A DNA stretch of 35,068 bases from the NCBI GenBank assembly GCA_043827405.1, contig JBDRPD010000042.1, forward strand, positions 1-35,068, in the 5' to 3' direction. The notes under the pieces were generated by a model, which ran no database searches, was not told the origin of the DNA, and saw only the letters and a list, made by a program, of their open reading frames with translations. The stretch's first letter is position 1. Each line of letters starts with the position of its first letter. A program made the position numbers and the translations under genes. Of this stretch, positions 15,001 through 29,830 are shown piece after piece. The DNA is from Elusimicrobiota bacterium. GTDB lineage: Bacteria; Elusimicrobiota; Elusimicrobia; UBA1565.

Positions 15001-18000
15001 ATCCCATCCTGGCCGGTCCGTTGGAGGTGGCCCAAAGCACGACCGTCGTGTTCCTTGCCTATAAGGTCGCGGCGGGTGCCAGTGCGGGGCGTACCGCGGG
15101 CGCCGTGATTACATCGGCCGGCGACATCTCGACGGTGGACCCCACTAGCTCGGTCCAGGGAGTGTTCCCGATTATCTCGCCGCTAACCCAGATCGTGGAG
15201 ACCATCAACACGCTCAAGATCCCGTCGTCGCCTCCGGTCAACCCGCCCAACGTCGATCAGGGAGAAAAGGACGTGAAGATGCTCAGCTTTGAACTGGTTT
15301 CCGACAACAACAATATTACCTGGTCGGGGCTGACCATCGAGCGCCTCGGCGACACCGTCGACGCCGACGTGAAAGCCATTCGGCTGTGGCGTGATACGGA
15401 CAAAAACGGCAACATCGATCCGGCCGTCGACGTGCAGCTCAACGGCACCATCAGCACCGATACCTTTACCGGCGGCGTCGCCACCATCGCCCTCGACGTT
15501 TCGACCGAGATCGCCCGCACGACCATGACCTTCATTATCACGTTGGATATCAGCCCCGACGCGGTGCCCGGCAGCTCCATCGCGGTCCGCATCGACACCA
15601 CCACGGCCTTCAGCATCAACGCGCCCAATATCGTCTCCAGCATGACGGCGGCCTTCCCCATAGACACCCCCAGCTATGTGCCGATTCAGCAGTTCGCTAA
15701 TACGATTACGGTCACGACCACCAGCATCGTGCCGTCGGGAGGCGCCCTGCCCGGGACGCAGAATGTGGGCATTATGCATCTCGTTCCCAATACCGACGTA
15801 TCAACGGCGAAATGGCTGGCGCTGCAGGTCGAGCGGCTGGGGAGTTCGGTCAACTCGGATATCGCCGCGGTGAAGATCTATTACGATAAAACGGGGCTGG
15901 GAACATGGAACTCATCGAACCTCGGCGCCTATGACCTGATCACCCCATCGACCCATACTTTCGGCGACCTGGGTCTTAACTCGGTGCGCGTGAGCATCAG
16001 CACGCCGCCGACCTTGGTGCGCTCCGACGTCAGCCAGAAGGGCTTTTTCCTCGTCGTCGATATCGCGGCGGGGGCGACCCCGGATAATACGATTATTGTG
16101 CGGGCGCAGAATGACAGCTGGTTCGAGGCCGACGGGCTCAACGAGTTCAGCAGCAGCACGGCGAAGTTTACGTCGCAGACCCTGACCATCGCCGCCCCGC
16201 CCCAGCAGATGTTCGTGGTGGCGAGCGATACGGCGCCCGCCTCTGTTACCCAGGGCGACACCTTTGTGCCGATGATGGAGCTCGAGCTGTGGATGACGAA
16301 CTATTCGGCGAAGTGGACCCGGCTCACGGTTCAGCGGGCGGGCACGGGCTCCGATGACGATATTTCGGCGGTGCGCATCTTCAACGACAGCGGCACGGTC
16401 GCCGGGGAGTGGGACGCTTCGGATACCGAGCTCGGCGCCGCGGTATTCAGCGGCGGCCAGGCGGTGCTGACCTTCGCCACGCAGACGATCCGTACCAGCA
16501 CCGCGATCTATCACCTGACCTACGATATCGATCCGGCGGCGCAGGGGACGAGCGTCGGCCTGGTGCTGGACAACTCGGGCCAGTTCGATCCGCTGTCCTC
16601 GCCGCATGTGACCTCGAACTACGGCTTCCCCTTCCAGTCCTCCGACAGCGCGATCGCGCGCACGGTTACGGGCATGAACGTCACCGGGTTTCCGGCGGCG
16701 CCGGGCTCGCTGCTCCAGGGCGCGACCAATCAGCCGATCATCGGCCTGATCCTGGATACCGACAATCTGGCGCTGCTCTTTTCTGCCGTGACGGTGAGGA
16801 GCTCGGGCACCGCGGCCGACAGCGATATCACGGCCGTCAACCTGTGGTATGACGCCGACCAGAACGGCAGCTTCAGCGCCGCGCTCGACGAGCAGCTTAC
16901 CGCCGGCTCCGAACGCTTCGTGGGCGGCGAGGCGACCTTGACCATCCTGCCTGGCAGCGAGAAGACGATTGATACGCTGGCAAAGACCTTCTTCGTGACC
17001 GTTGACGTGGCTGTTTTCGCCGACGACACCAAGAAATTCGGCGCGGTGGTGCTTTCGAGCGACGCCTTCACCGTCTCCAGCCCGAACTTCGTCGTCGACG
17101 CGAACTTCCCGGCGCCGCCCTTCCCGCCGAACTCGCCGCTGAAGAAGGTCGCCGAGGTGCTGACCGTTAGACCTGTCGACACGCTGCCCGCGGGCGGCGT
17201 CAATCAGAGCACGGCGGTGGCGGCGGTGATGCTCGCGGCCTTCGCCTCGCGCAATTCGATCGAGTGGACCAAGCTCTCCATTGAGCAGCGCGGGACACTC
17301 GACGTCTCATCGATTTCGGCCGTCAGCCTCTACCGCGCCGACGCCTCCGGCAACTTCAGCTCCGGCGCAGTCTTGATCGCGAGCACGGGGGCGTTCACCG
17401 GCAAGGTGGCCGAGCTGGTTATGACGTCCTCGGAGACGGTGACGACGTCGACGGGGACCTACTATGTGGTGCTCGCGATCGCCGCCGGCGCTCCCGTCGA
17501 TGGCACCGTCGCCCTGCGCATCGCCAGCGCGGGCTCGCTGACGGTGACGAAAAACGATACGGTTTCGTCCGCCAATATCACGCCGTTTGACACCGGCGCG
17601 ACCAAGATCCTCGACGTGAAGACGCCGACGCAGCCCCAGGTGACGCTCACCGACGGCTCCTTCAGCAGCAATTTCGAGCATCTGGAGTTTAACTGGAACT
17701 CCGAGGTCGGCAGCGGGGGCATTATCGGCGCCGAGTACGCGATTGGGACCTCGACCGGCGCCAACGACATCTACCCCGCCGATCCCGATCCCAATGTATT
17801 CGCGCCGCTTTCCGCCGGCGATACCACGAAGAAGGCCAGCGGTTTCGGCATGGTGTCCGGAACGACCTATTACGTATCCGTGCGGGTGCAGTCCATGGTC
17901 TCCGGCTCACCGACGGTATTTACCAGTCCGGTGGGGGTATCGGCGCCCATTCTGGTGGACTTTACCGTGCCGACCGCGCCCGCCCCCAATATCAGCGTCT

Positions 18001-18605
18001 CCGGGGGAACGCTGCTGTTTACCTGGAGCGGCATCGTCGCCGGCCCATCGGGGATCAAGGGCTATCTTATTGAGTACCGCACCGGCGAGGTGCCGGTGTG
18101 GAAGAATGTGAAGACCGGAGGCGGCGCCATTGCCCAATCGGTGAGCTCCATTCGCCCGGCGGTCGCCGTGGCGGACAAAGATGTCGTTACCGGCAACTCC
18201 TACCAGGCTACGGGTCTACCCAAGGGCACGCTGTACTTCCGGATGCGGGCCGTGACCGGCGCGGGGCAGGCGGGGCCGGCCAGCGATCCAAAGAAGCTGC
18301 TCGTCGGCGTGACGGGAACCGAGAGCATCAGCCAGGTCAGCAGTTATCCGAATCCCTTCGATTCCCGAAAGGAAAAAGCGACCATCCATTATTCGCTGGG
18401 CACCACGAGCGAAGTGTCCATTGAGATTTACAGTGTCTACGGACGGTTGGTGCGTTCGCTTAGCGGGACCGGCAATCCGGGCTCCAACGAGGTGGTCTGG
18501 GACGGCACCGACGACGGCGGCGCCAAGGTATCTATGGGCATCTACCTCGCCGTTGTCGAGGTCGGCGGCGAAAAGACCATCCTCAAGATCGGCGTCAAGC
18601 ATTAG
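3..18605 (+). CDS. Giant multidomain surface/adhesin-like protein (FG-GAP/VCBS propellers, FN3/Ig-like domains, LamG/ConA-like domains, beta-propellers, C-terminal FlgD-Ig/T9SS-like sorting domain); 5'-truncated
   Basis: The 6155-aa ORF 138..18605 stays open upstream to position 3 (GPGAPHPDGG...DDPGGGGGGGIVAVNV). There is no signal peptide or RBS at ATG138, so the true start lies outside the window. Motifs: (A/S)WGDYDNDGDLD FG-GAP repeats, LamG signatures (TVEAWV...WHHVA...YIDG...GQIDEVRI), YYWRVRA FN3/Ig motifs and a terminal YPNPF...WDG...GIYL...KIGVKH. Confidence 0.9.
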   Translation, partial: GPGAPHPDGGAAGADADGGDDPGGGGGGGIVAVNVTGSISTTLSAMTADGGASGGGTALAGAVGALPAGPGLVDDIAVGVIVSTGLGASSMTATLTWTAPAAGAAGGENAFYDLRYDTNPILTQADYDNAPNSVLFATAVVASAAESAQIEFLDAAATHYFAVSMIDNFGLKGGVSNAATALAYVTSVIGGINSRGVAWGDYDGDGDLDFIVAKNGDEYIGKNNGDGTFSPFTISGSGMNSLAVAWCDVDRDGDLDAVLANAGNESILRNDGGDNFTTVTIADTADTSNGIACGDYDNDGDMDLVVGNTTLEDYVATNNGIGGFSTAPLTGTAVNTKSVAWADYDNDGDLDFVAAANLTNDYIAKNNGDGTFSTFTFTAYVANSEGIAWGDYDGDGKLDIAIANNGNTAVYHNDGGDAFTEIQIADSGGNSLGIAWADYDNDNDLDLLVANSLTEQYILSNSDGAGTFVKVTLTGFPGTTYGVSWGDYDDDGDLDAVVGNDSATEDDWVYRNDLSVSHSAPSVPAGLTQYFDEFGAASSSGVLRLEWNEAADTETTDTDLLEYIVRVGTSAENGEIMPYPARFSQGGYGGAGFPYSTRGSTVTGKRGLRLVLPKETTVYWAVGAVDAEFTRSSTSTEQVAWLAAPAAISDLAAVYTSTGLGASSMTVTLTWTAPGANGGVGALAGGAFDLRYSTVGPIMDLMNYSTVSYQVMLSTSVSPGEPQSHTVEFLNAAVTHYFAITTIDEYGVRSALSNPTTALSYMVALVSPYQDSGDIAWGDYNRDGRLDLAAANDNKRAALYTQNADGSFTADSAGTETKISFALAWGDYDNDGDLDLAMANSSAGDEYVVKNNNGEFEWVSLDGSLGDSLGIAWGDYDNDGDLDLAVANDGQDNYIASNTAGAFSTFTVTSDGAGSTGVSWGDFNNDGYLDFAFANYGGDVVVGVNNGDGTISTAAIASSGGNSYGLAWGDYDADGYLDLAVVNDNENVYLLHNNGAGGFAAKSEIPNTDVAGRGIVWGDANNDGKLDLAIAVETDDEVVLFGDGAGGFTKITLVGTGHSSTAVSWGDADGDGDLDLAVSNDTESEFVLRNDIIAAHTPPTPPASGFSARYEEFSEFSSSGTLTLMWGHGADAETTDVDLLEYFVQVGTTVAGSSTTMRIPEAFGASGTGFLYSTRGSTDPARRGIKLRMQAETTAYWAVVPMDAELMRGATSAEQTTPVVAPRRISDLAVSVTISTAIGASSMTARLSWTAPGDDGGIGAIMAGEYDIRYSSHAAILTNADFINAAASFRIAVATSVNPDAPQTYDIPFLDRATTHYFAITTKDGLGVRSALSNAATAFSYIQEVVGTADASYNAAWADIDGDGDLDFVVANYAALKVKAVNNGDGTFTQSAIAGTAGSNTRGLAWGDMDNDGDLDAVLANDSDQAQTILVNDGNGNFSVYTLADTNGYSQGVAVADFDNDGDLDFVTSESAQDYVVLHTNLGGLYFSSATVAGGGTGSRGVTAGDMDNDGDMDIVVANNTGGANTMVLKNNGDGTFSETELTDTGGYSNGIALGDYDGDGDLDIAVANAGSGDSGEENYILRNNGGLSFTKITLVNDVQVSHGALWGDANNDGRLDAAFVNELGEDAAVWLSQGGDVFARHALYGTGGSTHSLSWGDFDDDGDLDLLLVSGPDTVGYIVRNDTSAANTAPSAPSGLTATFSEYSLFADSGVLTLKWSDATDTQTSTAALRYYVRIGTTTTGSSTTLKIPPRFGYDGYSGGGLLYSTRLSGLERGFKIEMQKETTVYWSLITEDGALARSGDSGEQEVDLSIPRAVTDLTAAIDNSVQSSSVAWVALSFTAPGENGNSGNLQAGALFDVRWSTVGPISSDAEYEGTTFKSIVSAAGAVQGSNSAWASVAVSASSKTYYFAMTTLDQFGARSVLSNSSNGVFPKIMRERVYDLAETSILQDQTTGFLRIDVWTDGVGQIVKWEKLRVKKIGSLPDGAIKLVGLWNDLGSVAKTFDDSDSKRTANAVFTSSEVVLTFSTPQSIDQTTSTYYLGAQFDPAFLPVDGASIALVLVGDAFVVTQGGVGAVDFPALELDGVDDGAIAPYHATLNVAPDPITVEAWVRTTDGGADRVIVTRGRTSPVGGYRLWLNGDGCGSGVPTLYIGVDKLCANAQDASVRIDDGYWHHVAAAFDNSAGKTIYIDGVTVAVGNTDGVLDLSDASEGGLGIGRSSATLGGLGNPLAGQIDEVRISKISSRYARDIEFIPARRFADGDINSVALYHFDGELDPALQFKDRSNAGSNTLTVVGAVGGYGRSTATAVTDAADVFVASGTDVAPATMFENQKDIAMLRLMLWTENDHVTLDEFFITPLGDGSAVENISLYLDDGDEVFDKFADTNLISGKEFTNSTATFNLAGAGKAQLINTSTKSYFIVWDVAGGIDLDVNLGLEIAATTNFTLSGSTDAGLNLGYPIRSGTPMIVGAEVFVTPEAATGTWINTSSIVFRTNGAFNLGNVLEYRYVWNQNPVTAVAWGDSPWTVGKATATAGTDANDWYFHVRAFASGPTAGTQEDFGPFYVDTALPTGAGFLSYNSTAGALAETQFSDLAADVTAEYQVEDALSGLNLDGPAPVAPDSGTISLWHFDEQSGITWYDAAGPNRNDLSIVAGGMTRTHGRFGSALLFDGVSYLRAVPLKIELPIGNVEFSFESWVFPLSTDTTSGITSWGTPSQPLRIALDSGQLAINFGGGYVARGPVLSTGVWQHIGLTYDGSTCRYYVDGAEVGSNGCGARETGLGELYIGGTDAGELFQGALDEMRILDVALSAGEIYNDYSRGDPYFVSYSTNAGSSWQFIASTDTAAAAHIELSGAHGAAGPETLKVYGLDLVLSTSAQTTNKGTNQVRFHAADRAANVFVAGPFAVLVDTNAPVAVSTPAVPVNGAFVSPGGTDPDAHPDFHWIGPDPYLVSGMAGEFFLEVVQDDDTFAAPLIRISTPAEVSDYGLDRTFGSYLSTFTLTENSTYYWRVRARSGLGIYSPWSQTSSFVTDTTTPTAADFRVFNSTAGDFLESQNIDLLTGVTVQITLNDAARAGLGHFAEYPSTTDVLGYWSFDEVGGANPIDSSGNGNNGTLSCGQLNCSSATYAAGRFGAGISCNGDQRQGVLFPNADFNFPASSTFTLEAWIFPEKIDSNRTLIAMGHPGYPAGRNYVFGTSKVGDITALQFVANTEGKTSSGRSILRDRWQHVAVVVESSRMLFYINGAFDSLEFIPGGVTGGGTMPLSICTGLNEAGAFSSGYYGMIDEVRVVGHALDAEQIAADYTATAAGRFAVEYSTTAGQDWNIVGATYAVPGYPYLRISGDAGSMGPQTLEVRLLDLTHSTSSATGSQGTNQVRFHVPDRAGNTLVTSPYAVIVDTVAAASVATPLFPADGAYSGSQPNFRWAGPSTTTVVQMGTGSVYLLEVDDNPDFFTQEIYISTPVLTQSTSVANVSGLYVSTYTLTHNTTYYWRVRSRNELGLLSPPLTVFTFVTDLSSPVSSGFISYNSTYGAVAEGVVNDLSAGVTVELLLQDSVLAAESGLSTQPVAGARTFGVIYTTQTGQNPVFWTDGGWGPSFSDPSGTAVEALALYGGALYAGTRGGASAPVYKYAGGGWTQAGAALTGSAVKCFAEFNGKLYAGVDGNGRIYSWNGGSWTQEFDTGKSQTNALAVYNGRLYAATGGSGEIWAYDAGTGNWFRVFAGYVESMSRWIDPIYALEVYNGSLFAAGQGGIIVSSGTTFTVSNKGNVGWLSLEVYNNDLYAGNNSGGEIFKFDGAAWGALPDKNTPEASVAALGMHDGRLYAGANGASPGRIYVKDGRDWLLVRQLATGDETRAFQHYNGRLYAGTKLSANGVVYVSTPLATSLTGDEGATSVQTLRAEGLTFTQSTIASDCLGSRQNPAVSCAATNQVRFTAMDRAGNVAAAGPYAVLVDALLSQPTAAYPAAGEFIMTDVPALLWQESPVQPKHEIEIDDDVEMTSPEYTLIVDSPVDLKGIAQVTVALTGGPTYYWHARSYSALGIPSAYTAPNNFIIDLLPPAVNAFQHINSAAGVITESQINNLAAGVTVQLTLQDATAGLFMSTATAVGNHQTPAGGFSVLYSTNAGASWRSLRPAAMSRDGSQEAVRSLAVYNGQLYAGQGLGAGDGDVFVNNGISWSASPAVPNPSSVEVIHAMAVYNGNLYAGQGADAGDGDVLKYDGSWSVSYDGAAGDIRALAVYNGKLYAGQGGAAAEDGDIHVYNGATWSLSTPTASSEIRALAVYKGQLYAGGGTTGIRIFDGWRWTENPGATTDPILAFAVYNGRLYAGTTGGDVRVFNGSAWTASTSTGAGYEILSLAAHGGRLYAGRGGAAAGDGDIYAFDGQKWTLAYDGAAGAVYALAAFNGKLFAGEGSAAGTDGDIRSFAHLGEPAITGIEGSVDPENFTAYLDLVNSTNTTQCGGSGPCGATNQVIFNAADRAGNVLSAGPYAVLVDTSVPLPMIDTLTPLTTRSIFVTANSSDNLSGINDYVFEASTSSDFSPPITDSGFVAIDSHTFTDLLVATTYYFRVTLRDNLLNVSTPSVVSATSTFGTVFYSSAAITPASALQSAVVPMLRLYLNTPTGTSRLDTVRVTLTGSAGDADVSEAQIYRDVDGDGVFDDGAETFLAGAVFTNGVSTVVLAGNAEALDVKVSTVFIAFQMSDFATVNNTVGMDLVLPGDIGLKFPDNAEGPFPTSVPPISITDGANRVTFNETGSYAAQSAAPSQNDVLTLRLNATTPLGSSIIDEIVVHLTGDMPANKITRVVVWRDANGNSVFEPATDDNLTDNIQTFTQKGTGLAVSTVTLSAPQSSRTVVQGGGEVFFVSVDIPSTAGSEQGKGFQLVISTPADIHLSNPADSAALTAYPITASTVTIQINNTVTVSTRSWAPATVVQGGRFVIFGATLTADAGTAGIDQFTVNLNGLAADSDIEAVELYKDKTADGKPFVSPAAETFLGSATFSGGVAVIGIWDPILAGPLEVAQSTTVVFLAYKVAAGASAGRTAGAVITSAGDISTVDPTSSVQGVFPIISPLTQIVETINTLKIPSSPPVNPPNVDQGEKDVKMLSFELVSDNNNITWSGLTIERLGDTVDADVKAIRLWRDTDKNGNIDPAVDVQLNGTISTDTFTGGVATIALDVSTEIARTTMTFIITLDISPDAVPGSSIAVRIDTTTAFSINAPNIVSSMTAAFPIDTPSYVPIQQFANTITVTTTSIVPSGGALPGTQNVGIMHLVPNTDVSTAKWLALQVERLGSSVNSDIAAVKIYYDKTGLGTWNSSNLGAYDLITPSTHTFGDLGLNSVRVSISTPPTLVRSDVSQKGFFLVVDIAAGATPDNTIIVRAQNDSWFEADGLNEFSSSTAKFTSQTLTIAAPPQQMFVVASDTAPASVTQGDTFVPMMELELWMTNYSAKWTRLTVQRAGTGSDDDISAVRIFNDSGTVAGEWDASDTELGAAVFSGGQAVLTFATQTIRTSTAIYHLTYDIDPAAQGTSVGLVLDNSGQFDPLSSPHVTSNYGFPFQSSDSAIARTVTGMNVTGFPAAPGSLLQGATNQPIIGLILDTDNLALLFSAVTVRSSGTAADSDITAVNLWYDADQNGSFSAALDEQLTAGSERFVGGEATLTILPGSEKTIDTLAKTFFVTVDVAVFADDTKKFGAVVLSSDAFTVSSPNFVVDANFPAPPFPPNSPLKKVAEVLTVRPVDTLPAGGVNQSTAVAAVMLAAFASRNSIEWTKLSIEQRGTLDVSSISAVSLYRADASGNFSSGAVLIASTGAFTGKVAELVMTSSETVTTSTGTYYVVLAIAAGAPVDGTVALRIASAGSLTVTKNDTVSSANITPFDTGATKILDVKTPTQPQVTLTDGSFSSNFEHLEFNWNSEVGSGGIIGAEYAIGTSTGANDIYPADPDPNVFAPLSAGDTTKKASGFGMVSGTTYYVSVRVQSMVSGSPTVFTSPVGVSAPILVDFTVPTAPAPNISVSGGTLLFTWSGIVAGPSGIKGYLIEYRTGEVPVWKNVKTGGGAIAQSVSSIRPAVAVADKDVVTGNSYQATGLPKGTLYFRMRAVTGAGQAGPASDPKKLLVGVTGTESISQVSSYPNPFDSRKEKATIHYSLGTTSEVSIEIYSVYGRLVRSLSGTGNPGSNEVVWDGTDDGGAKVSMGIYLAVVEVGGEKTILKIGVKH
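219..5790 (+). repeat. Three tandem ~575-590 aa units (FN3-like + FG-GAP propeller + FN3-like) plus a fourth FN3-like start, period ~1.7-1.8 kb
   Basis: Unit-start motif (V/I)xD(I/L)...SSM...L(T/S)WTAP recurs at ~219, ~1944, ~3675 and, more diverged, ~5448. Each of the first three is followed by about seven WGD(Y/F)DxDGDLD blades and a P..P..L...SG.L.L.W..A.D.(E/Q)T...Y.V.(V/I)GT...ETT.YW block. Confidence 0.85.
6230..9900 (+). other. Three LamG/concanavalin A-like lectin domains within the giant protein (~6230-6890, ~7870-8450, ~9260-9900)
   Basis: Each has (T/S)xE(A/S)W(V/I), W(H/Q)H(V/I), Y(I/V)(D/N)G and G.(I/L)DE(V/M)R(I/V) motifs, with an associated (Y/W)(H/S)FD motif. Confidence 0.8.
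10780..13260 (+). repeat. Two beta-propeller repeat arrays with ~40-47 aa blades (consensus ALAVYNGKLYAG...I..(Y/F)DG..W), ~10780-11620 and ~12390-13260
   Basis: Repeated ALALYGGALYAG, ALAVYNGRLYAA, SLAVYNGQLYAG, AMAVYNGNLYAG, ALAVYNGKLYAG, AFAVYNGRLYAG and ALAAFNGKLFAG in the translation. Confidence 0.8.
13750..17610 (+). repeat. Eight tandem ~155-165 aa beta-rich repeats with a DxDGxGxF-type loop (two more copies at ~5800 and ~6950)
   Basis: Recurrent pattern P..V.QG...ML.L.L...W..L.V.R.G...D.DI.AV.L(Y/W).D.(D/N)G.G.F...D..L...F.GG.A.L. Copies start near 13750, 14220, 14730, 15210, 15710, 16210, 16680 and 17160. Confidence 0.75.
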
Positions 18606-18705: not shown

Positions 18706-19080
18706 GTGCGACGCCCATTGCTCATCATGGTCCTGGTCGTTCTGGTGGCTGTCCCGTGCGCTGTTTTCTCGACGGGAACCGGGCAGCTGACCCAGGTTTC
18801 CGCCTATCCCAATCCTTTCGACTCCCGCCAGGAAAAAACCAAGATCGCATATACCCTTTCCGAAGACCGGGGCGTCGCGGTGGATATTTACAGCGTCTAC
18901 GGCGCGCGGGTCTGGAATTGTTCTATCCCCCCGGCGGTACTCGGCGGCCGCCGGGGGGCGAATTATTTAACCTGGGACGGCCGCGGCAGCCGGGGCCGTA
19001 AAGTCGCCAAGGGCGTCTATCTCGCCGTCGTCCGGGCCGGCTCGGCCCGGACGGTCGTCAAGATCGGAGTGATCCATTGA
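18706..19080 (+). CDS. Small exported protein consisting of a signal peptide plus one FlgD-Ig/T9SS type-A-like sorting domain
   Basis: Signal-peptide-like MRRPLLIMVLVVLVAVPCAVFS (start GTG18706; alternatives GTG18673 and ATG18727), then QVSAYPNPFDSRQEK...DIYSVYG...WDG...GVYLAVV...KIGVIH, a clear paralog of the giant protein's C-terminus. Confidence 0.8.
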   Translation: MRRPLLIMVLVVLVAVPCAVFSTGTGQLTQVSAYPNPFDSRQEKTKIAYTLSEDRGVAVDIYSVYGARVWNCSIPPAVLGGRRGANYLTWDGRGSRGRKVAKGVYLAVVRAGSARTVVKIGVIH

Positions 19081-20645
19081 AGAGGCTGATCGCGCTGCTC
19101 CTTCTTCTCCCGTCCGCGGCGCTGGCCGGAGTCGCCGGCCGGCCGGGCGAGCGGAACACGGTCGGCGCCGGCGCTCGCGCGCGCGCGCTGGGCAGCGCGC
19201 ACACCGCGGTGGTCCAGGATGCGACGGCGCTCTACTATAACCCGGCGGGGCTGGGGCTTCTCCCCGGCCGTGAGGTGTCGGTTATGCGCGCGCAGCTCTT
19301 CGGCGACGCCACCTACGACTACGTCGCCTATGCGCAGAACAAGCGCAAGCGCGCCGGCGGCTGGGGCATTGAGCTTATTCGCCTGGGCGTTCAGGGGGCG
19401 GAGGGCCGCGATGAGTTCAATAATGCGAGCGGCGGCTTCGGCTATTCGGAAATGTCGCTCGGTTTCGCGCATGGCTACCGCGGCGTTTTCGATCCGAACC
19501 TGTCGGTCGGCTTCAAGCTGAAGATGCTGCAGCGCAGCATGGACGGCGCCTCCGACCGGATGCTGGGGATGGATCTCGGGGCGCAGTACGGGCCGCTGTT
19601 GGGCGACAAGCTCCTGCTCGGCTTGGTCGCGACCAATGCCGTGGGGATGACGCAGGGCGAGACCGACGATAAGCTCGGGCGCGTCGTCCGCGTCGGCGCC
19701 GCCTACAAGGTTATCGGCCCGCTGTCGATCGCGGCGGATATGTCATCGGAGGGGGAGTTCCGCATGGGTACCGAATATGCGTTCGGGATCACCTCCGTCC
19801 GGGTGGGTTTTGAGGACAAAAACCTGTCGTTCGGCGGCGGCCTGATGTTCCGCCGCAAATACATGTTTGATCTGGCGCTGGTGACCCACCCCACGCTCGG
19901 CATGTCGCAGCGCATGTCGATCGGCTATAAGTTCGGCAGCGCCGTTCCGCGGCCGGGGGAGGAGCGGACCCAGCGCCAGACGCGCTACGCCCAGGAATAC
20001 CTCAACAATGCCAAGACGGAGCTCAAGAAGAGCAACTATCTGCGGGCATCGAGGGATCTTGATACCGCGCTGGGCATCGACCCGCGCATCGAGAACGGGG
20101 AATGGACCGCGCAGGCCGTGCGGCTGCGCCGGCTGGTTAAGGAACTCGATCTCGCCGGGCACGAGGAGGACGTCGCCGAGCTGGCGCAGGAGAGCAAGGC
20201 GGCCAAGATCGCGCAGAGCGCGATCAGCGCGTATCTCGACGGCGAGGACGACCGGGCGATGCTTTATGCGCACGTGGCGCGCGGCTCGGCTCCGCGCAGC
20301 GCCGCCTACCGGCGCCTGCTGGAGGGGATGGCCAAGATCACGGACCGCAAGATCGAGCGCGACCAGATTATGCCCCCGGAACGGCTGGTGGCGCTCAAGA
20401 TGAAGCAGGGGATGGATGCGGTCTATGCCCGCCGCTTCGCGATCGCGACCGAGGTTTTGCGCGAGGCGCTGTGGCTTGATCCGACCAACGCGCTCGCCTA
20501 TACCCGGCTCGGTTCCGCGCTCTACGCCATGGGCGACCGGGTGCGGGCCCGCCAGGCCTGGCTGAAGGCGCTGGAGCTTGATCCCGCCAACGAGAACCTG
20601 CGCCGCTTCATGGCGCAGCAGCAGATCGAGACGGGCGGGCAATAA
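19077..20645 (+). CDS. PorV/PorQ-family (FadL-like) outer-membrane beta-barrel protein with C-terminal TPR domain
   Basis: Signal peptide MKRLIALLLLLPSAALA. PorV/FadL N-terminal signature GARARALGSAHTAVVQDATALYYNPAGL. Alternating beta-strands ending MSIGYKF (~19935), then TPR-like helices (ALWLDPTNALAYTRLGSALYAMGD...ALELDPAN). The TTG start overlaps the upstream TGA. Confidence 0.85.
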   Translation: MKRLIALLLLLPSAALAGVAGRPGERNTVGAGARARALGSAHTAVVQDATALYYNPAGLGLLPGREVSVMRAQLFGDATYDYVAYAQNKRKRAGGWGIELIRLGVQGAEGRDEFNNASGGFGYSEMSLGFAHGYRGVFDPNLSVGFKLKMLQRSMDGASDRMLGMDLGAQYGPLLGDKLLLGLVATNAVGMTQGETDDKLGRVVRVGAAYKVIGPLSIAADMSSEGEFRMGTEYAFGITSVRVGFEDKNLSFGGGLMFRRKYMFDLALVTHPTLGMSQRMSIGYKFGSAVPRPGEERTQRQTRYAQEYLNNAKTELKKSNYLRASRDLDTALGIDPRIENGEWTAQAVRLRRLVKELDLAGHEEDVAELAQESKAAKIAQSAISAYLDGEDDRAMLYAHVARGSAPRSAAYRRLLEGMAKITDRKIERDQIMPPERLVALKMKQGMDAVYARRFAIATEVLREALWLDPTNALAYTRLGSALYAMGDRVRARQAWLKALELDPANENLRRFMAQQQIETGGQ

Positions 20646-20690
20646 AATGGCAACGCGAATAGAGGAAAATATCGGTGCCGGGAGTGAGCG

Positions 20691-23174
20691 ATGGAGATCG
20701 TAATCTTCGTCCTCATTCCCGTGGTGTTTCTGGTGCTGGCGTCCAGCATGCTGGTGGTCAGCCAGGTGTCGAGCCTGTTTCAGACGACCCGGTATTCCAA
20801 GAAACGCCGGCTCGACCGCGAGAACATCGAGCGCAACCTGCTGAAGCTGGCGGTCGAGAAGGCGCGGGTGGCGCGGCGCAGCAAGCAGTTGGAGGGGTTG
20901 TCCAAGCGGCTGCAGGCAACCAATGTGGACCTGGATCGGCTTAACAGCATGAAAACAAAATTTCTTTCCATGGCGGTTCATGATATGCGCACCCCGCTGG
21001 CCTCGATTAAGGGCTTCGGCGAGATGCTCAGCCGCCAGCAGCTCGCGGGTACGCAGAAGAAATACGTCGACTACATCGTCCGCGGTACCGACCAGATCAA
21101 CCGCTTGATGGCCGATCTCACCGACCTCGCGGTTATTGAAGCCGGCAAGCTGAAGATGGAAAAGGTGCCATTCCAGCTTTCGGACCTGCTCCAGGACATC
21201 GTGCCGCCGATCCAGGTGATCGCGGAAAAAGCCGGCGTGGAATTTATACCGCCGGAAGATCCGAAGGAAGTAACCATTATCGGCGACAAGTTCCGTCTGG
21301 GCCAGGCGCTCAATAACTTTCTTAACAACGCCTGCAAGTTTACCCCCGCGGGAGGCCGGTTCGAGCTGATCATCAAGGCGATCGGCCGCACCGTCACCTT
21401 CGGCGTCAAGGATACGGGCCCCGGCATCGACCGCTCGGAGGTCGAGTTTGTTTTCGAGAAGTTCTACCAGTCGAAGTACACCAAAAAGGCGGACAAGAAG
21501 AAGGGCTGGGGGCTGGGGCTGTCGATCACCCAGGAGATAGTGCGCGCGCACTTCGGCGATATCGGCGTGGACTCGCCGGGCCTCGGAAAGGGGTCGACGT
21601 TCTGGTGCAGTATCCCGCTCAAGCCGCCGCGGCAGGCGCGGCTGCCGGTTGCGGTCGCGGCGCTGCTGCTGGCCCTGGGACTCGCGGCGGCGCCGCTGCG
21701 GGCGGCGGACCTCATGCCGCTTGAGGAGAAGGCGCGCTATGAGGCGGCGCTCGAGCAGAAGGCGGAGTCGGTGCTACTGCGTATTCTGGGGCCGAACCGG
21801 GCGCGGGTGGTGGTGAACGCGACTTTGGACTTTACCCGGACCGAGCGCTTCGACGTCAAAAGCGGCGGTGCGGAAGACCAAAACGCGGCGTCCTTGTACC
21901 TGTGGCAGAGCGTCGGCGCCGAGGGAGCGGGCCGCTCGCAGCTGCTGCCCGGCATCCCGTCGCCGGAGACGGTGCCGGCATTGACCGAATCCAAGTCCTA
22001 TGAGCGCTCCAACACCTTCCCCACGTCGTTTATCAAGAAGCTGGAGGTCACTATTATTTATGACGACAGCGTTCCCCTGGAAAGGATCGACGCTATCAAT
22101 AAAATTATTCCCGACGTCCTCAATATGGAAACAGGCCCGCCGCGCGAGGATATGCTGAGCTTCGCCCGGTCTCCTTTCCAGCCGGCCTGGAAAACGATCT
22201 GGTACACGCCGGAGTCGGCCAGCCTGCTGTTTAAGTACGGCATTATCAGCCTCATGACCCTGATCACCCTGCTGGTGGTGGCGGCCTGCTTCCTTAAGCT
22301 GGCCGATGCGATGGACTCCATGGCGCAGTCCCAGTCCAACCAGCTGAAGATGGATATCGGCGATGAGGGCGAGCCGATCGAGACCGACGCGGAAGGCGCC
22401 GAAAAGAAGGATGGGGAGGGCGATGGGCCGCCGCCGGAGAGTCAGATCATAATCAACGTCCACCTGAGCCAGGTCGACACCCTGCTTGAGATCCTGTCCC
22501 GCCAGGACCCGGAGAATATCGCGCTGATCGTCGCGCATCTCAAGCCGGAGGTCAAGAAGGCCTTCCTGCGGCGCCTGCCTCCCGAGATTTACAGCCGCGT
22601 GCTGATGAACCTCGGCAAGATCAAATTCATGGAGCCGGATACGGTCGCTACCGTAAAGGACGAGCTCGAGCGCCGCTTGGAAAGCGCGGTGGGAGGCCAC
22701 GGCAAGCTGCTGGAGATGATCGAGGATTCGGATTTGCGGTCCAAGAAAGAGCTGCTCCATCTGCTGGAGCAGCGTGAGCCGGAGCTGGCGAAGATCGTCC
22801 GCTCGCGGATCCTGCTGTTTGAGGATCTATTGAACCTCCTGCCTAAGGAGTGGTCGATCGTTCTTGGTTCGGTATCGCTCGAGGACTGGGGCGCCGCGCT
22901 CTACGACAGCGACGACGTGATGCGCGAGGCGGTGCAGGCGCAGATGCTGCCGAAGACCTGGAGCATTCTGTCGCAGATGATGGACGTCGCCAAATCAACC
23001 GCCGCCGCCGGCGACCAGGCGCGCGAGCGCATCGTGGAGACGGTGGCCCGGCTGGCCGCCGAGGCCCGCATCGGCAATCCCGGACTTCGCAAGGCGGCGC
23101 AAGCCGATGCGCTGGACGGCGTGGCGCCGCTTTTAGAGGAAGCGCTGGGGGAGAGTTCGGTCGAGACGGGATAA
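20691..23174 (+). CDS. Membrane fusion protein: sensor histidine kinase (HisKA + HATPase_c) + FliF C-terminal ring-like periplasmic domain + FliG middle/C-terminal-like domain
   Basis: GGAG RBS. N-terminal TM, H-box SMAVHDMRTPL (H97), N-box NFLNNACKFT, G1 DTGPGI, F-box FEKFYQ, G2 GWGLGLSI. Hydrophobic segment ~21640-21705. FliF-C-like LEQKAESVLLRILGPNRARVVVNATLDF...IKKLEVTIIYD...REDMLSFARSPF. TM at ~22220-22300. FliG-like QDPENIALIVAHL...VGG...EPELAKIVRSRILLFEDL. Confidence 0.8.
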   Translation: MEIVIFVLIPVVFLVLASSMLVVSQVSSLFQTTRYSKKRRLDRENIERNLLKLAVEKARVARRSKQLEGLSKRLQATNVDLDRLNSMKTKFLSMAVHDMRTPLASIKGFGEMLSRQQLAGTQKKYVDYIVRGTDQINRLMADLTDLAVIEAGKLKMEKVPFQLSDLLQDIVPPIQVIAEKAGVEFIPPEDPKEVTIIGDKFRLGQALNNFLNNACKFTPAGGRFELIIKAIGRTVTFGVKDTGPGIDRSEVEFVFEKFYQSKYTKKADKKKGWGLGLSITQEIVRAHFGDIGVDSPGLGKGSTFWCSIPLKPPRQARLPVAVAALLLALGLAAAPLRAADLMPLEEKARYEAALEQKAESVLLRILGPNRARVVVNATLDFTRTERFDVKSGGAEDQNAASLYLWQSVGAEGAGRSQLLPGIPSPETVPALTESKSYERSNTFPTSFIKKLEVTIIYDDSVPLERIDAINKIIPDVLNMETGPPREDMLSFARSPFQPAWKTIWYTPESASLLFKYGIISLMTLITLLVVAACFLKLADAMDSMAQSQSNQLKMDIGDEGEPIETDAEGAEKKDGEGDGPPPESQIIINVHLSQVDTLLEILSRQDPENIALIVAHLKPEVKKAFLRRLPPEIYSRVLMNLGKIKFMEPDTVATVKDELERRLESAVGGHGKLLEMIEDSDLRSKKELLHLLEQREPELAKIVRSRILLFEDLLNLLPKEWSIVLGSVSLEDWGAALYDSDDVMREAVQAQMLPKTWSILSQMMDVAKSTAAAGDQARERIVETVARLAAEARIGNPGLRKAAQADALDGVAPLLEEALGESSVETG

Positions 23175-23194
23175 GACAACCGGAGTAAGACAAC

Positions 23195-24364
23195 ATGGCT
23201 GACAAAGTAGATAGTCTTCTCGCCAGCTTGCGGGGCGAGGAGCCGGAACCCGAACTGGAACCACCCGTTGACGCGCCGCCCCCCATGGCGGAGGCCGCGG
23301 CGCAGGCGCCGGTGGCGGATCTGGGGCCCATTGAAGAGAAGATAGCGGCGCTGGAGGCGCAGATCGCGGCGCTGCAGGCGCCGCCGCCCCTGGAGGAGCC
23401 GCCGCCCTTAGAGGAGATGCCGCCGCCCCTGGAGGAGCCGCCGCCGGAACCGCCGGAGCCGCCGACCCAGCTGACGATGTTCCTGCAGACGCGCATGGAG
23501 CTCCTGGAGCGGAAGCTTGAGATGTCTCAGCGCGACGCGGTACGTGCCAATATGATCCTGCGCGAGCGTGAGGATGCCCAGCGCCGTGCGCAGAAGGAGG
23601 TGGAGGACTTGTTTCGCCGCATCCGCGAACAGCAGCGCTCCGCCAGCTTCGATCAGGAGCTGCGCCGGAACTATACCGCTTCGCAGGCGCGCGTTGAGGA
23701 GCTGCAGCAGCGCTTGGCGCTGGCGGAGCTGCGCATGGTGCCGGCGGAGGATGTATTGCGCAGCTTCGAGGGAGAGGAAGGGCGCGCTGAGCTTGAACGG
23801 CGTCTGCGCATACAGCTGGCGAAGGCGGAAGCGGGTACGGCTATAGGCAAAATCGAGCCGTCCCGTCCCGCCGAAGGCGGGACGACCCCGGCCGACAAAC
23901 CCCTGCCTCCTACCGAAAAAATGATCGCGGCGCCCATCGGCGGCGACATTGAATCCATTTCGGTGCTGCTGGGGCGCATCGCGGACTTGGAAGCCCGCCT
24001 GGAGGAATCCGCCGAAGAGCGGGAGAAGGAGCGGCAGGAGCGAAAGCGCTGGGAAGGGAATATGCTGGAGTCGCTCAAAAGCACGCGCCGTCAGTGGCAG
24101 AAGACCGGCGGTCCGGAGCTCCTGGTGGAGGCCGCGTTGGAGACTATGGTAGATTCTGTTAAGGAGCGGGATCGCCTACAGTTGGATATGGGCAAGCTGG
24201 TTATGATGCTCCAGGATGAGCCGCCGGACTCAAGGCGAACGCCGGCACTGCGGGCGCGGCTCGCCGAATATCAGAACAAGATGCGGGAGCTGCAAGAGAA
24301 GCTCGACAAGCAAACGGCGCTTATTGAGGCCTGGGTGAAGCGCAGCAAGGAAGCGGGGCAATGA
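23195..24364 (+). CDS. Hypothetical cytoplasmic coiled-coil protein with Pro/Glu-rich N-terminus
   Basis: 389-aa ORF with GGAG RBS at 23182-23185 and high-GC3 codons. Heptad-rich helical segments (IEEKIAALEAQIAALQ, LGRIADLEARLEE, LAEYQNKMRELQEKL). No TM or signal peptide. Its stop is 1 nt before motA. Confidence 0.75.
   Translation: MADKVDSLLASLRGEEPEPELEPPVDAPPPMAEAAAQAPVADLGPIEEKIAALEAQIAALQAPPPLEEPPPLEEMPPPLEEPPPEPPEPPTQLTMFLQTRMELLERKLEMSQRDAVRANMILREREDAQRRAQKEVEDLFRRIREQQRSASFDQELRRNYTASQARVEELQQRLALAELRMVPAEDVLRSFEGEEGRAELERRLRIQLAKAEAGTAIGKIEPSRPAEGGTTPADKPLPPTEKMIAAPIGGDIESISVLLGRIADLEARLEESAEEREKERQERKRWEGNMLESLKSTRRQWQKTGGPELLVEAALETMVDSVKERDRLQLDMGKLVMMLQDEPPDSRRTPALRARLAEYQNKMRELQEKLDKQTALIEAWVKRSKEAGQ
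23381..23464 (+). repeat. In-frame tandem repeat encoding PPPLEE x3 followed by PPPEPPEPP
   Basis: ccgccgcccctggaggag / ccgccgcccttagaggag / (atg)ccgccgcccctggaggag read directly from the sequence. Confidence 0.8.
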
Positions 24365-24365
24365 T

Positions 24366-25103
24366 ATGGATCCATCGACACTAATCGGCGCCGTCGGCTG
24401 CGTCACGCTTATTGTTCTCGGCGCGGCGACCGGGGAGCTCTCCAAGGTCTTTCTCAACTGGCACGGCATCATTATTGTTTTCGGCGGAACGATAAGCGCG
24501 TTGTTTATCAATACTCCGCTGATCTATATTCGTGAGCTGATGAGCATGTCGCTGTCGCTGTGGCGCCGGGGCAGCCATGAGAAGGTGGAGACCCTCATCC
24601 CGGAGATCACGCGCATCGCCGAGCAGGTGCAGACCGGCGGCCTGGGGGTGCTGCGCAATATCGACACCAAGGCGGCCGGAGGCTACCTGTCGTCCGCCGC
24701 TACCACCGCCCTGGAATACAATAATCCCGAGTTTGTACGCACCGTTCTGGAGAATGAGGTCAATGCCCAGGTCGACCGGGCCAACGAGGTCATCAATGTC
24801 GTTCGGACCGCGGGCGTCGTTGCGCCCATGTTCGGACTGATCGGGACCTTGGTCGGAATTATCAAGGTCTTGGCCAATATCGCCGACCCCAAAACCTCGA
24901 TGGCCTATATGGCGATCGCGATCACGTCGGCGTTTTACGGCATTCTGCTGGCCAATGTCTTCTGTATCCCGGTCGCGGGCAAGCTCCGGCTGCGTTTATG
25001 GGAGGAGCTCAAGATCAAGGCGATTGTGATCGAGGGCGTTATCGGCATGATGAAAGGGACCGTTCCGCTGGTCCTGGAGCGCAAGCTGCATTCCTTCAAG
25101 TAG
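24366..25103 (+). CDS. motA: MotA/PomA-family stator (ion-motor) A subunit
   Basis: 245 aa with 4 TMs. N-terminal MDPSTLIG, IVFGGT, APMFGLIGTLVGII and MAIAITSAFYGILLANVFCIPVAGKL all match PomA/MotA consensus motifs. Confidence 0.85.
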   Translation: MDPSTLIGAVGCVTLIVLGAATGELSKVFLNWHGIIIVFGGTISALFINTPLIYIRELMSMSLSLWRRGSHEKVETLIPEITRIAEQVQTGGLGVLRNIDTKAAGGYLSSAATTALEYNNPEFVRTVLENEVNAQVDRANEVINVVRTAGVVAPMFGLIGTLVGIIKVLANIADPKTSMAYMAIAITSAFYGILLANVFCIPVAGKLRLRLWEELKIKAIVIEGVIGMMKGTVPLVLERKLHSFK

Positions 25104-25105
25104 AC

Positions 25106-25804
25106 ATGGCTATCTATAAGTTCCGCAAGGACGAACTCGACAACGCGCTCAACAAGAACGCGATTTGGGCGATCGTCTACGGGGACATGATGAGCTATTT
25201 AATGATCTTGTTCCTGATGATGCTGTCCTACAGCATCAGCAAGGACATCGATCGCAAGTCGAAGACGTTCGAGGAAGCGCTCAATGAAGTGCAGGTGGTT
25301 TTCGGCGGCAAGATAGATAAAAAAGTGGCGGATCGCATCCAGGCGCGCGACAAAGAGTTCGTCTATATCGAGACCATGAAGCAGGGCGCGGAGGACGGGA
25401 AGTTCGGCGATGAGGCCTCGGTCATCGTCAGCGAGCTTAGCATTCAGCTGAACCTCGGCTCCGGAATTCTATTTGATTCGGGCGAGGCCACGCTTAAGCA
25501 GGATGCCCTGCCCAAGCTGGAAGTCGTCGCCAAGAACATGCTTAACGTTAAGAACGAGATCCGCGTCGAGGGGCATACCGATTCCGTGCCGATCGGCAAG
25601 CGCATGGGCTTCAAGTCCAACTGGGAGCTGTCGATGGCGCGCGCCTATTCCGTTATTCGGGCTCTGGAGGGCTTCGGCGTCGATCCCAAAAGGCTGTCCG
25701 GGGTCGGCTACGGCGAGCACCGCCCCGCCGGCGACAACAGCACCGCGGCGGGCCGGTCGCAGAACCGGCGTATCAGCATCGACCTGCTGCGCATCGGGCA
25801 GTAG
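25106..25804 (+). CDS. motB: MotB/PomB-family stator B subunit with OmpA-like peptidoglycan-binding domain
   Basis: Probable start ATG25106, 2 nt after the motA stop. WAIVYGDMMSYLMILF TM with the conserved Asp (D27). OmpA-C motifs ILFDSGEATL, VEGHTDS, SNWELSMARA, GYGEHRP and NRRISI. Confidence 0.88.
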   Translation: MAIYKFRKDELDNALNKNAIWAIVYGDMMSYLMILFLMMLSYSISKDIDRKSKTFEEALNEVQVVFGGKIDKKVADRIQARDKEFVYIETMKQGAEDGKFGDEASVIVSELSIQLNLGSGILFDSGEATLKQDALPKLEVVAKNMLNVKNEIRVEGHTDSVPIGKRMGFKSNWELSMARAYSVIRALEGFGVDPKRLSGVGYGEHRPAGDNSTAAGRSQNRRISIDLLRIGQ

Positions 25805-25818
25805 CGCCCCCTCTTTCC

Positions 25819-26811
25819 TTAATCCTTCCGGCGATCGATGAAGTGTTTGGAGCCGCCGAAGCTCTTGGCGTGCTTTTTGAGCTCCGCGCCGAGCTGGCTG
25901 ACCTGGGCATGTGAGGTGAGCGGCTTGAGGCTGTTGTGGCAGATGCCGATCGCGATTCCCAGTAACGGGTATTCCACGGTTTCACCCCGCCGGTCCTTGG
26001 CGATGATCTTGCCGCGTCGCGCGTCTTCTTCCTTATAGAAGGAAGGGACTATCCGATCATACTCCGAGATGATGACATCGGCCAAGAGTTCCATTTTATC
26101 GGGATTGGTGACTACGATGAAATCGTCGCCGCCGATATGGCCTATGAAATCCCCTTCCGCTCCGCGAGCATGCACGGTATCCAGGATAAGCTTGCCGGTC
26201 GTTTTTAGGACCTGGTCGCCGGCGGCAAAGCCGTAGACGTCGTTGTAGGCCTTGAAGTTGTTGAGGTCCAGGTAGAGGATGGCCAGGGGGCCGCCGCGGC
26301 TGATCCGCTCCGCGATCTTGTTCTGAATCGAGGCGTTGCCCGGCATCTTGGTCAGCGGATTGGCGTCGATGCTCTGCTTGGTGCGCTTAAGGATCATGCG
26401 GATGCGGGCCAGCAGCTCAATGAGGTTGACCGGCTTGGTGACGAAGTCGTCGGCGCCGAGCTCGAGTCCCTGCACCTTATTGTCCAAGTCGGCGGCGCCG
26501 GAGAGCAGGATAACCGGCAGGTGCTGGCTGAGCGGGTTTTCCTTGAGCGCCTGGCAGACCTCGAAGCCGTTTTTCATCGGCATCCAGAGGTCCAGGATGA
26601 CGAGATCGGGAGGGGATTCGAGCACAAAATCGAGAGCGTCCTGGCCGTTGGAGGCCGCCCGGACCTCGTAGCCTTCCATCTCGAGCGCGTCCTGCATCAG
26701 CGCCAGCAAGTCGTCCTGGTCATCGGCGACCACGATGCGGGCGCCCACGGACGGCTGGCCGGGGATGTCGGGCTTGCCGTCTTGCGCAAGGGGGGGATCG
26801 CTCTGTTCCAT
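25819..26811 (-). CDS. Response regulator with GGDEF-family (GGDDF) diguanylate cyclase domain
   Basis: REC motifs (VADDQ, DLVILDLWMP, GADDFVTKP), then DANPLTKMPGN, DLNNFKAYNDVYGFAAGD and HIGGDDF. Confidence 0.9.
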   Translation of the reverse strand: MEQSDPPLAQDGKPDIPGQPSVGARIVVADDQDDLLALMQDALEMEGYEVRAASNGQDALDFVLESPPDLVILDLWMPMKNGFEVCQALKENPLSQHLPVILLSGAADLDNKVQGLELGADDFVTKPVNLIELLARIRMILKRTKQSIDANPLTKMPGNASIQNKIAERISRGGPLAILYLDLNNFKAYNDVYGFAAGDQVLKTTGKLILDTVHARGAEGDFIGHIGGDDFIVVTNPDKMELLADVIISEYDRIVPSFYKEEDARRGKIIAKDRRGETVEYPLLGIAIGICHNSLKPLTSHAQVSQLGAELKKHAKSFGGSKHFIDRRKD

Positions 26812-26931: not shown

Positions 26932-27162
26932 ATGGGTAAAATCCCCGCGGAGTCGCCAAAAAACAAGTCTGGCGCGAATCCCATGGCGCTCGCTTTTGGG
27001 CTTGGGTTCGAGCTGGTCCTGCCGGTGTTGGCGGGCGTCGTGGGCGGCCGGTGGGCGGATGGAAAGTTGGGGACGCAGCCCTGGCTGCTTCTCATAGGAA
27101 CTTTCGCTGGATTTTCGCTTGGGCTCTACCAACTTATCCGTAAAACGAGAATTTCTAAGTAA
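26932..27162 (+). CDS. atpZ: AtpZ/AtpI-family small membrane protein (first gene of atp operon)
   Basis: Two TMs with the family pattern LGFELVLPVLAGVVGGRWADGKLGTQPWLLLIG...G. It sits at the head of the atp operon. Confidence 0.8.
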   Translation: MGKIPAESPKNKSGANPMALAFGLGFELVLPVLAGVVGGRWADGKLGTQPWLLLIGTFAGFSLGLYQLIRKTRISK

Positions 27163-27511
27163 GACCGCCCGCAGCGCGTTGGAGGGCGCCGTGCTGGCTC
27201 TCGCCGCGGCGGTTTTGCTCCGGTGGAAGTTGGCGGAACATCTGGTCCGGCCGGCCTGGGTGGGTGTTTTCGCCGCGTGGGCGGTGTCCACGGCGAGCGT
27301 CGCGGCTTTGTTGGCGTTTCGCGGCCGCTCTTTTGAGTCGTTTCTGTGGGCGTTCGGCGGGGGAGTGCTTCTGCGGATGGCGGTGCTGGCCGGCATGATG
27401 GCCGTCGTCTGGGGCGAGCGCTACGAAGTTCAGGCGGCGCTGCTCGGCTCGTATGCGGCGGGAATTTTAGTTCTTTTAACGACGGAGTATAGGCAGCTCA
27501 GCGGGAAATAA
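27119..27511 (+). CDS. atpI: ATP synthase I-like 4-TM membrane protein (start uncertain: TTG27119, TTG27179 or GTG27191)
   Basis: Hydrophobic ORF with four TM-like segments and a GGVLLRM motif, ending 2 nt before atpB, which is the typical AtpI position. Confidence 0.6.
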   Translation: MGSTNLSVKREFLSKTARSALEGAVLALAAAVLLRWKLAEHLVRPAWVGVFAAWAVSTASVAALLAFRGRSFESFLWAFGGGVLLRMAVLAGMMAVVWGERYEVQAALLGSYAAGILVLLTTEYRQLSGK

Positions 27512-27513
27512 CC

Positions 27514-28302: not shown

Positions 28303-28398
28303 ATTTCGTACACCGTCCAGCGGCGCTTCTGGACGAGGTCGCACCCGATCCGGCCCGGCGTACTCCGCGATCGGACCTAAACAACGGAGGACTTAACT

Positions 28399-28683: not shown

Positions 28684-28696
28684 GCTCGAAACATGA

Positions 28697-28730: not shown

Positions 28731-28766
28731 CACAATTTGACGCATCCGTCGTTTGCGGAGGAACTT

Positions 28767-29815: not shown

Positions 29816-29830
29816 GAGAGGTTTAACGTC

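Follow-up and report, generated by a model that had tools for sequence, protein, structure and literature searches.

A conserved in-frame fusion of a histidine kinase to a FliF/FliG-type rotor subunit, with an internal and probably cleavable signal peptide, in Elusimicrobiota

Introduction

Why does a bacterium with no detectable flagellum encode a histidine kinase and a flagellar-type rotor protein in a single reading frame? The question is raised by a 35,068-nucleotide stretch of DNA from an Elusimicrobiota bacterium (contig JBDRPD010000042.1, assembly GCA_043827405.1), which we call the window and to which coordinates refer unless another contig is named. At 20691-23174 on the forward strand, the window holds an uninterrupted frame of 827 codons that joins a membrane-anchored kinase to a subunit resembling the flagellar ring proteins FliF and FliG.

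According to the accessible text of Uzun et al. (bioRxiv 2022.07.08.499144), free-living Elusimicrobiota carry many motAB and fliG homologues without flagella, and the role of these genes is called unclear. The fusion is conserved, and in the literature searched (most subscription papers excepted) neither a kinase-rotor fusion nor its operon is described. The automatic names assigned by JGI to some homologues already list both a kinase and FliG.

Results

One reading frame for a kinase and a rotor subunit

An earlier note on this DNA had read the frame as a single 827-amino-acid (aa) protein with an intact kinase followed by FliF-C-like and FliG-like regions, and this layout is borne out by what follows. 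The parts of the gene, including its transmembrane helices (TM1 and TM3), are listed below.

20691..23174, + strand: fused gene of 827 aa, membrane-anchored histidine kinase, putative internal signal peptide and FliF-RBM3/FliG rotor subunit
20697..20780, + strand: TM1 (aa 3-30), N-out anchor with a basic cluster behind it, without an outside sensor domain (sequence)
20781..20948, + strand: helical/coiled-coil linker, cytoplasmic (aa 31-86; helix 2-114 in the AlphaFold2 model)
20949..21146, + strand: HisKA/DHp domain (aa 87-152) with phospho-His97 (Pfam and homologue alignment)
21282..21623, + strand: HATPase_c domain (aa 198-311), N, G1, F and G2 boxes complete (Pfam, alignment and fold match)
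21624..21704, + strand: putative internal Sec-type signal peptide, 'TM2' of the earlier note (aa 312-338), predicted cut after Ala338 (sequence)
21705..22181, + strand: periplasmic FliF RBM3/beta-collar-like ring domain (aa 339-497; profile and AlphaFold structure comparison)
22227..22301, + strand: TM3 (aa 513-537), counterpart of the second FliF helix (model and alignment)
22479..23072, + strand: FliG middle (597-666) and C-terminal (692-794) domains with a Gly-Gly hinge (Pfam and structure)

On the 827-aa protein, Pfam matches above the cut-off were obtained for HisKA (87-152, E 7e-17), HATPase_c (198-311, E 1e-22), FliG_M (597-666, E 6e-11) and FliG_C (692-794, E 3e-11), with YscJ_FliF_C at aa 363-390 falling under it (E 0.027). 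The three hydrophobic segments give a self-consistent in/out topology. The topology drawn in the earlier note is right in this respect, but its second helix is better read as a signal peptide than as a lasting anchor.

The junction between the two halves is covered without gaps by two further contigs. One, from a run (X1) that is possibly the source of the same DNA, is gap-free from 19000 to 25900; the other (X2), from a separate study, covers 21564-21939 with 11 substitutions and zero gaps, so that the stretch 21600-21720 is continuous in both. No stop or frameshift appeared near 21620. Because gap-free contigs span the junction and 72 homologues are likewise fused, the fusion of kinase and rotor in one frame is confirmed and is no assembly error.

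Conservation and origin of the fusion

The 72 fused homologues, all of which span the junction, come from the 120 protein matches listed; those with a name are nearly all Elusimicrobiota, and one partial record is labelled NC10. Of 101 genomes from the order, 26 carry the junction as one open frame, two of a single genus (G002 and G011) have it split, and in one a contig end interrupts it, so that homologues do keep the fusion; one further genome (G360) gave a match, and 71 gave none to the query used. The G360 match, a kinase-rotor arrangement with one stop, was rejected, as a different HAMP-type kinase there precedes a distant paralogue. One genome (G022) carries an extra, split second copy besides the fused one.

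Outside the order, the rotor orthologues are free-standing genes, usually arranged as kinase-motA-rotor, and 176 of 401 genomes of the phylum contain a rotor homologue. In quick trees, the fused rotors form one branch (Shimodaira-Hasegawa-like approximate likelihood ratio support 96) with the split genus nested inside. A second tree, built on 23 of 40 locus rows, rejected a grouping of the fused rows without the split genus (approximately unbiased test, p-AU 1.6e-45, 23 rows). The trees thus indicate one fusion and one later fission. Gene context was counted over 29 orthologous loci, each 12-20 kb long, after one of the original 30 had been set aside as paralogous.

The rotor half

The likeness to FliF is weak by single sequence and firm by profile and structure. 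A profile of 135 homologues (aa 339-803) matches FliG (E 6e-67) as well as Salmonella FliF 240-510 (E 2.4e-17), and a FliG-type PDB match was obtained for the FliG half (E 5e-17). The AlphaFold model of the same region, with a mean predicted local distance difference test (pLDDT) score of 86, matches the FliF RBM3/collar of 6scn (Z 14.2, root-mean-square deviation 1.4 Å, 95 residues), with which Foldseek concurs, and FliG-C of 1qc7 (Z 14.6, 1.2 Å, 88 residues). PrgK, EscJ and SpoIIIAG score far lower than FliF (Z 8.2-8.6).

The subunit is minimal. RBM1, RBM2 and the N-terminal helix of FliF are lacking, and the periplasmic part, of about 160 residues only, begins at the RBM3 helix (about FliF residue 230). 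FliG_N, the FliF-binding domain, gave no Pfam match, and a disordered linker (pLDDT <50) takes its position, while TM3 runs on into the cytoplasm as a conserved helix that reaches about aa 552. In two shorter kinase-rotor fusions (P0164 and P0158), the FliG C domain appears to be missing and the collar insert to be reduced. We infer by analogy that the rotor forms a ring; in the accessible text of one report, FliF RBM3 on its own forms rings (PMC8786727).

The second hydrophobic segment

What separates the two halves is a segment that matches in position the N-terminal signal peptides of 19 stand-alone rotor orthologues. It is laid out as a basic n-region, an h-region, a proline and Leu-Arg-Ala. 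Among the 72 fused proteins (pairwise identity 33-97%, median 45%), the column of Ala338 is the sole invariant one from Pro309 to Pro343, in an otherwise variable linker, and this alanine is encoded by three different codons across 21 loci. The +1 residue is Gln in 65 of the 72, and the -3 residue is Ala in 46 and mostly Leu, Val, Ser or Ile in the rest. The n-region carries a mean of 3.4 Lys/Arg and 0.08 Asp/Glu, and a helix breaker is present in 65/72. Mean column identity over the n- and h-regions is 0.41, against 0.63 for TM1 and 0.69 for TM3. By its best 17-residue hydrophobicity value, the fused segment (0.07) equals the stand-alone signal peptides (0.08, n=19) and is less hydrophobic than TM1 (-0.10) and TM3 (-0.18). 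Residues 333-341 have no structure in the AlphaFold model; therefore, packing does not explain why Ala338 is invariant.

A simple cleavage rule of modest specificity fires on 72/72 fused segments, 28/29 PorV-like proteins and 15/19 stand-alone signal peptides. The source genome has three signal peptidase I matches. In the split genes, the rotor restarts through an overlapping stop and start with an ordinary short signal peptide, and in a single Logan record (P0134) a coiled-coil domain is joined to the rotor at the same signal-peptide-like junction. In none of 21 loci is there, ahead of the segment, a start codon equipped with a ribosome-binding site, and the linker of the 827-codon gene itself is free of in-frame ATG, GTG and TTG codons. 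In the accessible text on the Bacteroidetes Q-rule, Gln at +1 after a signal peptide is linked to glutaminyl cyclase (PMC5837995); that enzyme (PF05096), sought as an explanation for the +1 Gln, was not found with the query used.

By its sequence, then, the segment has the features of a Sec/signal peptidase I substrate (a basic n-region and a short h-region, then small residues at -3 and -1). It is probably the ancestral Sec signal peptide of the rotor and not a permanent anchor, and it still looks cleavable. We consider it likely that signal peptidase I cuts after Ala338, which would make the product a polyprotein. The modelled geometry also weakly favours cleavage: if helix 31-86 is straight, the kinase core would lie about 8 nm from the membrane, and the link of about 9 residues to the segment would span about 3 nm. 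A kinked helix would dissolve this conflict.

The kinase half

The kinase is intact. His97 is kept in all 70 homologues covering the site, with Asp at H+1 and Thr/Asn at H+4, and N209, D241, G243, F255, F258, G274 and G276 are invariant in 72/72 fused homologues. The boxes are complete in 28/28 orthologous loci, fused and unfused. The kinase half of the full model matches the folds of HK853 and DivL, and the BceAB-S structure 8g3a is also among its matches. Its domain, phospho-His and N/G1/F/G2 boxes assign the protein by sequence to the class I (HisKA) histidine kinases. As the earlier note had seen, the sequence leaves no room for an extracytoplasmic sensor domain. Because there is no outside domain and TM1 is conserved, the kinase most likely senses some membrane partner. 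A complex prediction for two copies of the kinase N-terminal half with the rotor from TM3 to FliG (score 0.00, mark 0.32) is neutral in this regard.

Signalling to the neighbouring REC-GGDEF protein, as the earlier note had suggested, is weakly supported and has been downgraded. Only 7/29 orthologous loci have an orthologue close by; these loci belong to one family, the distance from motB is 1-7 kb, and an ATP synthase operon is present each time. An OmpR-type regulator follows or lies near motB in 8/29 loci (including L084:10677-11372); its receiver is degenerate and unmatched by Pfam Response_reg, and its best match in the source genome, on contig C75, has 29% identity.

The operon

The remaining genes of the window that concern the fusion are as follows.

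3..18605, + strand: giant surface-type protein of >6155 aa with FG-GAP repeats and a C-terminal tail resembling FlgD-Ig and type IX secretion system (T9SS) sorting domains, open at the contig start
18673..19080, + strand: small protein, the same tail domain behind a hydrophobic N-terminus
19077..20645, + strand: PorV/PorQ-like outer-membrane barrel with C-terminal TPRs (below the NCBIfam cut-off)
23195..24364, + strand: coiled-coil protein, conserved in the locus, that belongs to no known family
24366..25103, + strand: MotA/PomA-type stator, Gln89 and Arg97 in place of the Arg and Glu of solved MotA structures
25106..25804, + strand: MotB-type stator with channel Asp27, plug and OmpA-type wall-binding domain
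25819..26811, - strand: REC and GGDEF-like (GGDDF) protein, a convergent neighbour of uncertain relevance (Pfam)

The kinase lies directly 3' of the PorV-like/TPR gene in 28/29 loci, fused or not, the remaining locus being cut by a contig end. Both stator subunits, MotA and MotB, are encoded in 28/29 loci, with the MotB channel Asp in 28/28; a MotA-type protein together with a MotB bearing the Asp, plug and wall-binding domain makes the pair a stator by its features. In most unfused loci, motA sits between kinase and rotor. The barrel reaches 67.6 bits for PorV_fam against a cut-off of 90, and in the sorting-type tails Por_Secre_tail lies under its cut-off and FlgD_ig above. The coiled-coil neighbour has no Pfam family and no atlas match of at least 0.9.

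The source genome has four loci with rotor, MotA and MotB (contigs C42, C49, C54 and C68) and a fifth FliG-bearing gene on C52. The paralogous loci of this genome (G000) lie at C49:7-16429, C54:9796-26784, C68:29257-33148 and C52:14007-18256. On C49 and C54, too, a giant protein is encoded upstream, and on C54 and C68 there are two motB genes; the C54 locus ends with a kinase and a response regulator, the kinase after motB being of HAMP type. One orthologous locus (L080, G326:C46) has two rotor genes, in the order PorV-like, kinase, rotor, motA, rotor, motB. As for the giant gene of the window, its true start is missing as the frame runs off the contig start, and the small gene behind it repeats its tail (49% identity) and is doubled in some relatives. 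Further downstream, an ATP synthase operon (27119-35068) is interrupted between atpA and atpG by a 153-aa unknown gene and an NAD-dependent epimerase; a PilZ-domain gene lies between atpG and an atpD-like gene, which runs off the contig end.

Not a flagellum

No match to flagellin, FlhA, FliP, rod/hook, FliM or FliN was found in the genome, which is 97.97% complete, with six Pfam families whose search controls matched 4/14 each. The machine is therefore not a flagellum, as flagellar-core matches are missing from a 98%-complete genome. There being no FliM/FliN switch, CheY-type control would have no target. The SprA/Sov translocon also gave no match, but the control search was silent as well.

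Discussion

The fusion is best explained, we believe with somewhat more than even confidence for the explanation as a whole, by a read-through that occurred once in the ancestor of the order and joined two genes of a conserved operon, one for a membrane kinase without sensor domain and one for a minimal rotor subunit made of a signal peptide, the FliF RBM3/collar, one membrane helix and FliG M and C. The signal peptide would remain functional inside the chain; signal peptidase I would cleave after Ala338 and free a normal rotor subunit, while TM1 would keep the kinase in the membrane. As such, the fusion would fix 1:1 synthesis and co-insertion, not a lasting link. It is quite probable that the rotor subunits assemble into a ring in the inner membrane which, together with the MotA/MotB ion channel, makes up an envelope machine independent of any flagellum; its likeliest job may be to energise the handling of giant surface proteins at the PorV-like barrel, be it export, display or surface movement. 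The chances are slightly better than even that the kinase is a dedicated monitor of this machine, which would read its state through TM1 in the manner of intramembrane-sensing kinases and signal to a response regulator encoded mostly elsewhere; an output in gene expression would be likelier than direct switching. We consider it rather doubtful, and mention only tentatively, that a flagellum-free rotary motor, a one-chain FliF-RBM3/FliG ring turned by MotAB, drives export or surface movement of giant proteins via the PorV-like barrel, with signal-peptidase cleavage as a checkpoint such that the kinase changes state only once the rotor subunit is exported and released into the ring.

Several observations weigh against this explanation. 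The cleavage prediction derives from sequence only, and the simple rule also fires on 36/72 TM3, 16/70 TM1 and 11/27 MotB control segments (23-50% of the control helices). The Ala338 column rests on an alignment that is gapped on both sides, and the homologues are kin. In the source protein itself, the segment, with a hydrophobicity value of -0.01 and 19 uncharged residues, is more like a transmembrane helix than the family mean, and its +1 residue is Ala, unlike the common Gln. The order-wide retention of the fusion over deep divergence means that the link itself may matter, and 13/21 loci have an in-frame ATG, GTG or TTG somewhere in the n-region. A sorting-type C-terminal tail lies upstream in 17/29 loci only, and in the 29 loci neither the REC-GGDEF protein nor the OmpR-type regulator is established as the receiver of the kinase. 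No match was found for FliM or FliN, the proteins by which the FliG ring of engineered FliF-FliG fusions is stabilised according to the accessible text of one report (PMC10941966).

The residues for torque point the same way. In the accessible text of a further report, FliG Arg281 and Asp289 pair with MotA Glu98 and Arg90 in torque generation (PMC7564593). With these sites mapped through a T. maritima alignment, the basic FliG site is Lys or Arg in 33/56 close rotors, while at the acidic pair 49/56 have Gln and the next residue is mostly hydrophobic. The MotA Glu site holds Glu in 0/28 loci and Arg or Lys in 22/28; the MotA Arg site is Gln or His in 14/15 fused loci and Arg or Lys in 12/13 unfused ones. 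Rotation is thus unproven, since the canonical MotA-FliG torque charges are not kept: either new contacts may have replaced them, or the paralogue may do less mechanical work and more sensing.

In one alternative, close to the reading of the earlier note, the chain stays whole or is cleaved only in response to a signal; its former signal peptide would then act as an anchor like the first FliF helix, and each ring subunit would carry a kinase that senses assembly or load mechanically. The retention of the fusion in 26 of 28 decidable genomes of the order, a compatible topology, the 19 uncharged residues of the source segment and a short link from the ATPase domain, which would couple the two tightly, all fit this arrangement. 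We nonetheless judge it improbable, as the invariant Ala at -1, the frequent Gln at +1 and a variable, weakly hydrophobic h-region look like a trace of selection for cleavage, the same kinase is unfused in 13/28 loci showing it, and the fusion was lost in one genus. Less probable still is a tolerated accident of translational coupling, made neutral by cleavage, in which the kinase would regulate the operon or the surface protein and sense neither rotor nor stator. The constant neighbour of the kinase is indeed the PorV-like gene and not the rotor, from which motA separates it in most unfused loci; P0134 shows a second passenger fused once at the same junction, and a distinct HAMP-type kinase stands before the G360 paralogous rotor and after motB at C54. 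If the fusion were neutral, however, reversions would be expected in more than one genus, and a sensor-less kinase with a conserved TM1 needs a membrane partner; this kinase stays in the operon in 28/29 loci.

It is very unlikely that the rotor comes mostly from an internal start codon in the linker, with the full-length product minor. The in-frame ATG, GTG or TTG codons of the 13/21 loci do lie 16-31 codons before the site (six being ATG at 22-25), but none has a ribosome-binding site of at least 4 bases, the source gene and seven others have no such codon, and Met occurs in the n-region of only 20/72 proteins. An assembly or sequencing artefact that lost a stop codon can be practically dismissed: the contig is metagenome-derived and two relatives are split, but the junction is gap-free in a contig of another study and fused in 72 homologues and 26 genomes.

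The explanation by read-through and probable cleavage draws on parts that are each familiar from other systems. With the flagellar FliF, FliG, MotA5B2 and PomA5B2, the locus shares the RBM3/collar fold, the membrane helix, FliG M/C with a Gly-Gly hinge, and adjacent MotA and MotB with the channel Asp. It differs in that a signal peptide stands in place of the first FliF helix, RBM1 and RBM2, FliG-N is also gone, the FliF and FliG parts form one chain, several paralogous sets occur per genome, FliM, FliN, export gate, rod and filament are without match, and the torque charges are lost. Compared with Bacteroidota T9SS and gliding, it likewise places a PorV-family barrel and giant sorting-tail proteins beside an ion-driven motor (GldLM in Bacteroidota), but the motor here is of MotAB/FliG type and the PorV and tail matches lie under curated cut-offs. 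Intramembrane-sensing kinases such as BceS resemble the present one in having little or no outside domain and in standing beside a membrane machine that could serve as sensor; here, however, there is one N-terminal helix instead of two, the partner would be a rotor and stator, and the regulator usually lies outside the operon. A lone RBM3-type domain outside flagella is known from the SpoIIIAG ring of the sporulation channel (profile E 1.3e-4; Z 8.2), which has no FliG or stator and is a far more distant relative of our domain than FliF (Z 14.2).

For cleavage inside a chain, the cytochrome b-c1 precursor FbcH of Bradyrhizobium is said to be a polyprotein cut at an internal signal sequence with an Ala-X-Ala linker, a precedent not found in the literature searched. 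It reportedly shares with the present protein two membrane proteins in one chain, joined by a signal-peptide-like linker that ends in Ala-X-Ala; in the present protein, however, the first of the two is a signalling enzyme and cleavage is a prediction. For one-chain rotors, engineered or mutant FliF-FliG fusions of Salmonella and Vibrio (PDB 8z4d; PMC10941966), as far as the accessible text describes them, form rings and in Salmonella support motility; they keep the full FliF within a flagellum, whereas the present fusion is natural, minimal and kinase-bearing.

All parts are known and the machine is not; what is new is the machine as a whole, of which the kinase fusion is an order-specific variant. 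A natural minimal FliF-FliG rotor with its own stators and without flagella would offer a testable model of the rotor-stator core alone, and it bears on the origin or reuse of the flagellar motor. With the kinase fusion comes a signalling arm dedicated to the machine, and a likely case of a bacterial polyprotein that would be cut at an internal signal peptide. Such a machine would answer the question raised in the accessible text of Uzun et al., namely why free-living Elusimicrobiota keep motAB and fliG without flagella.

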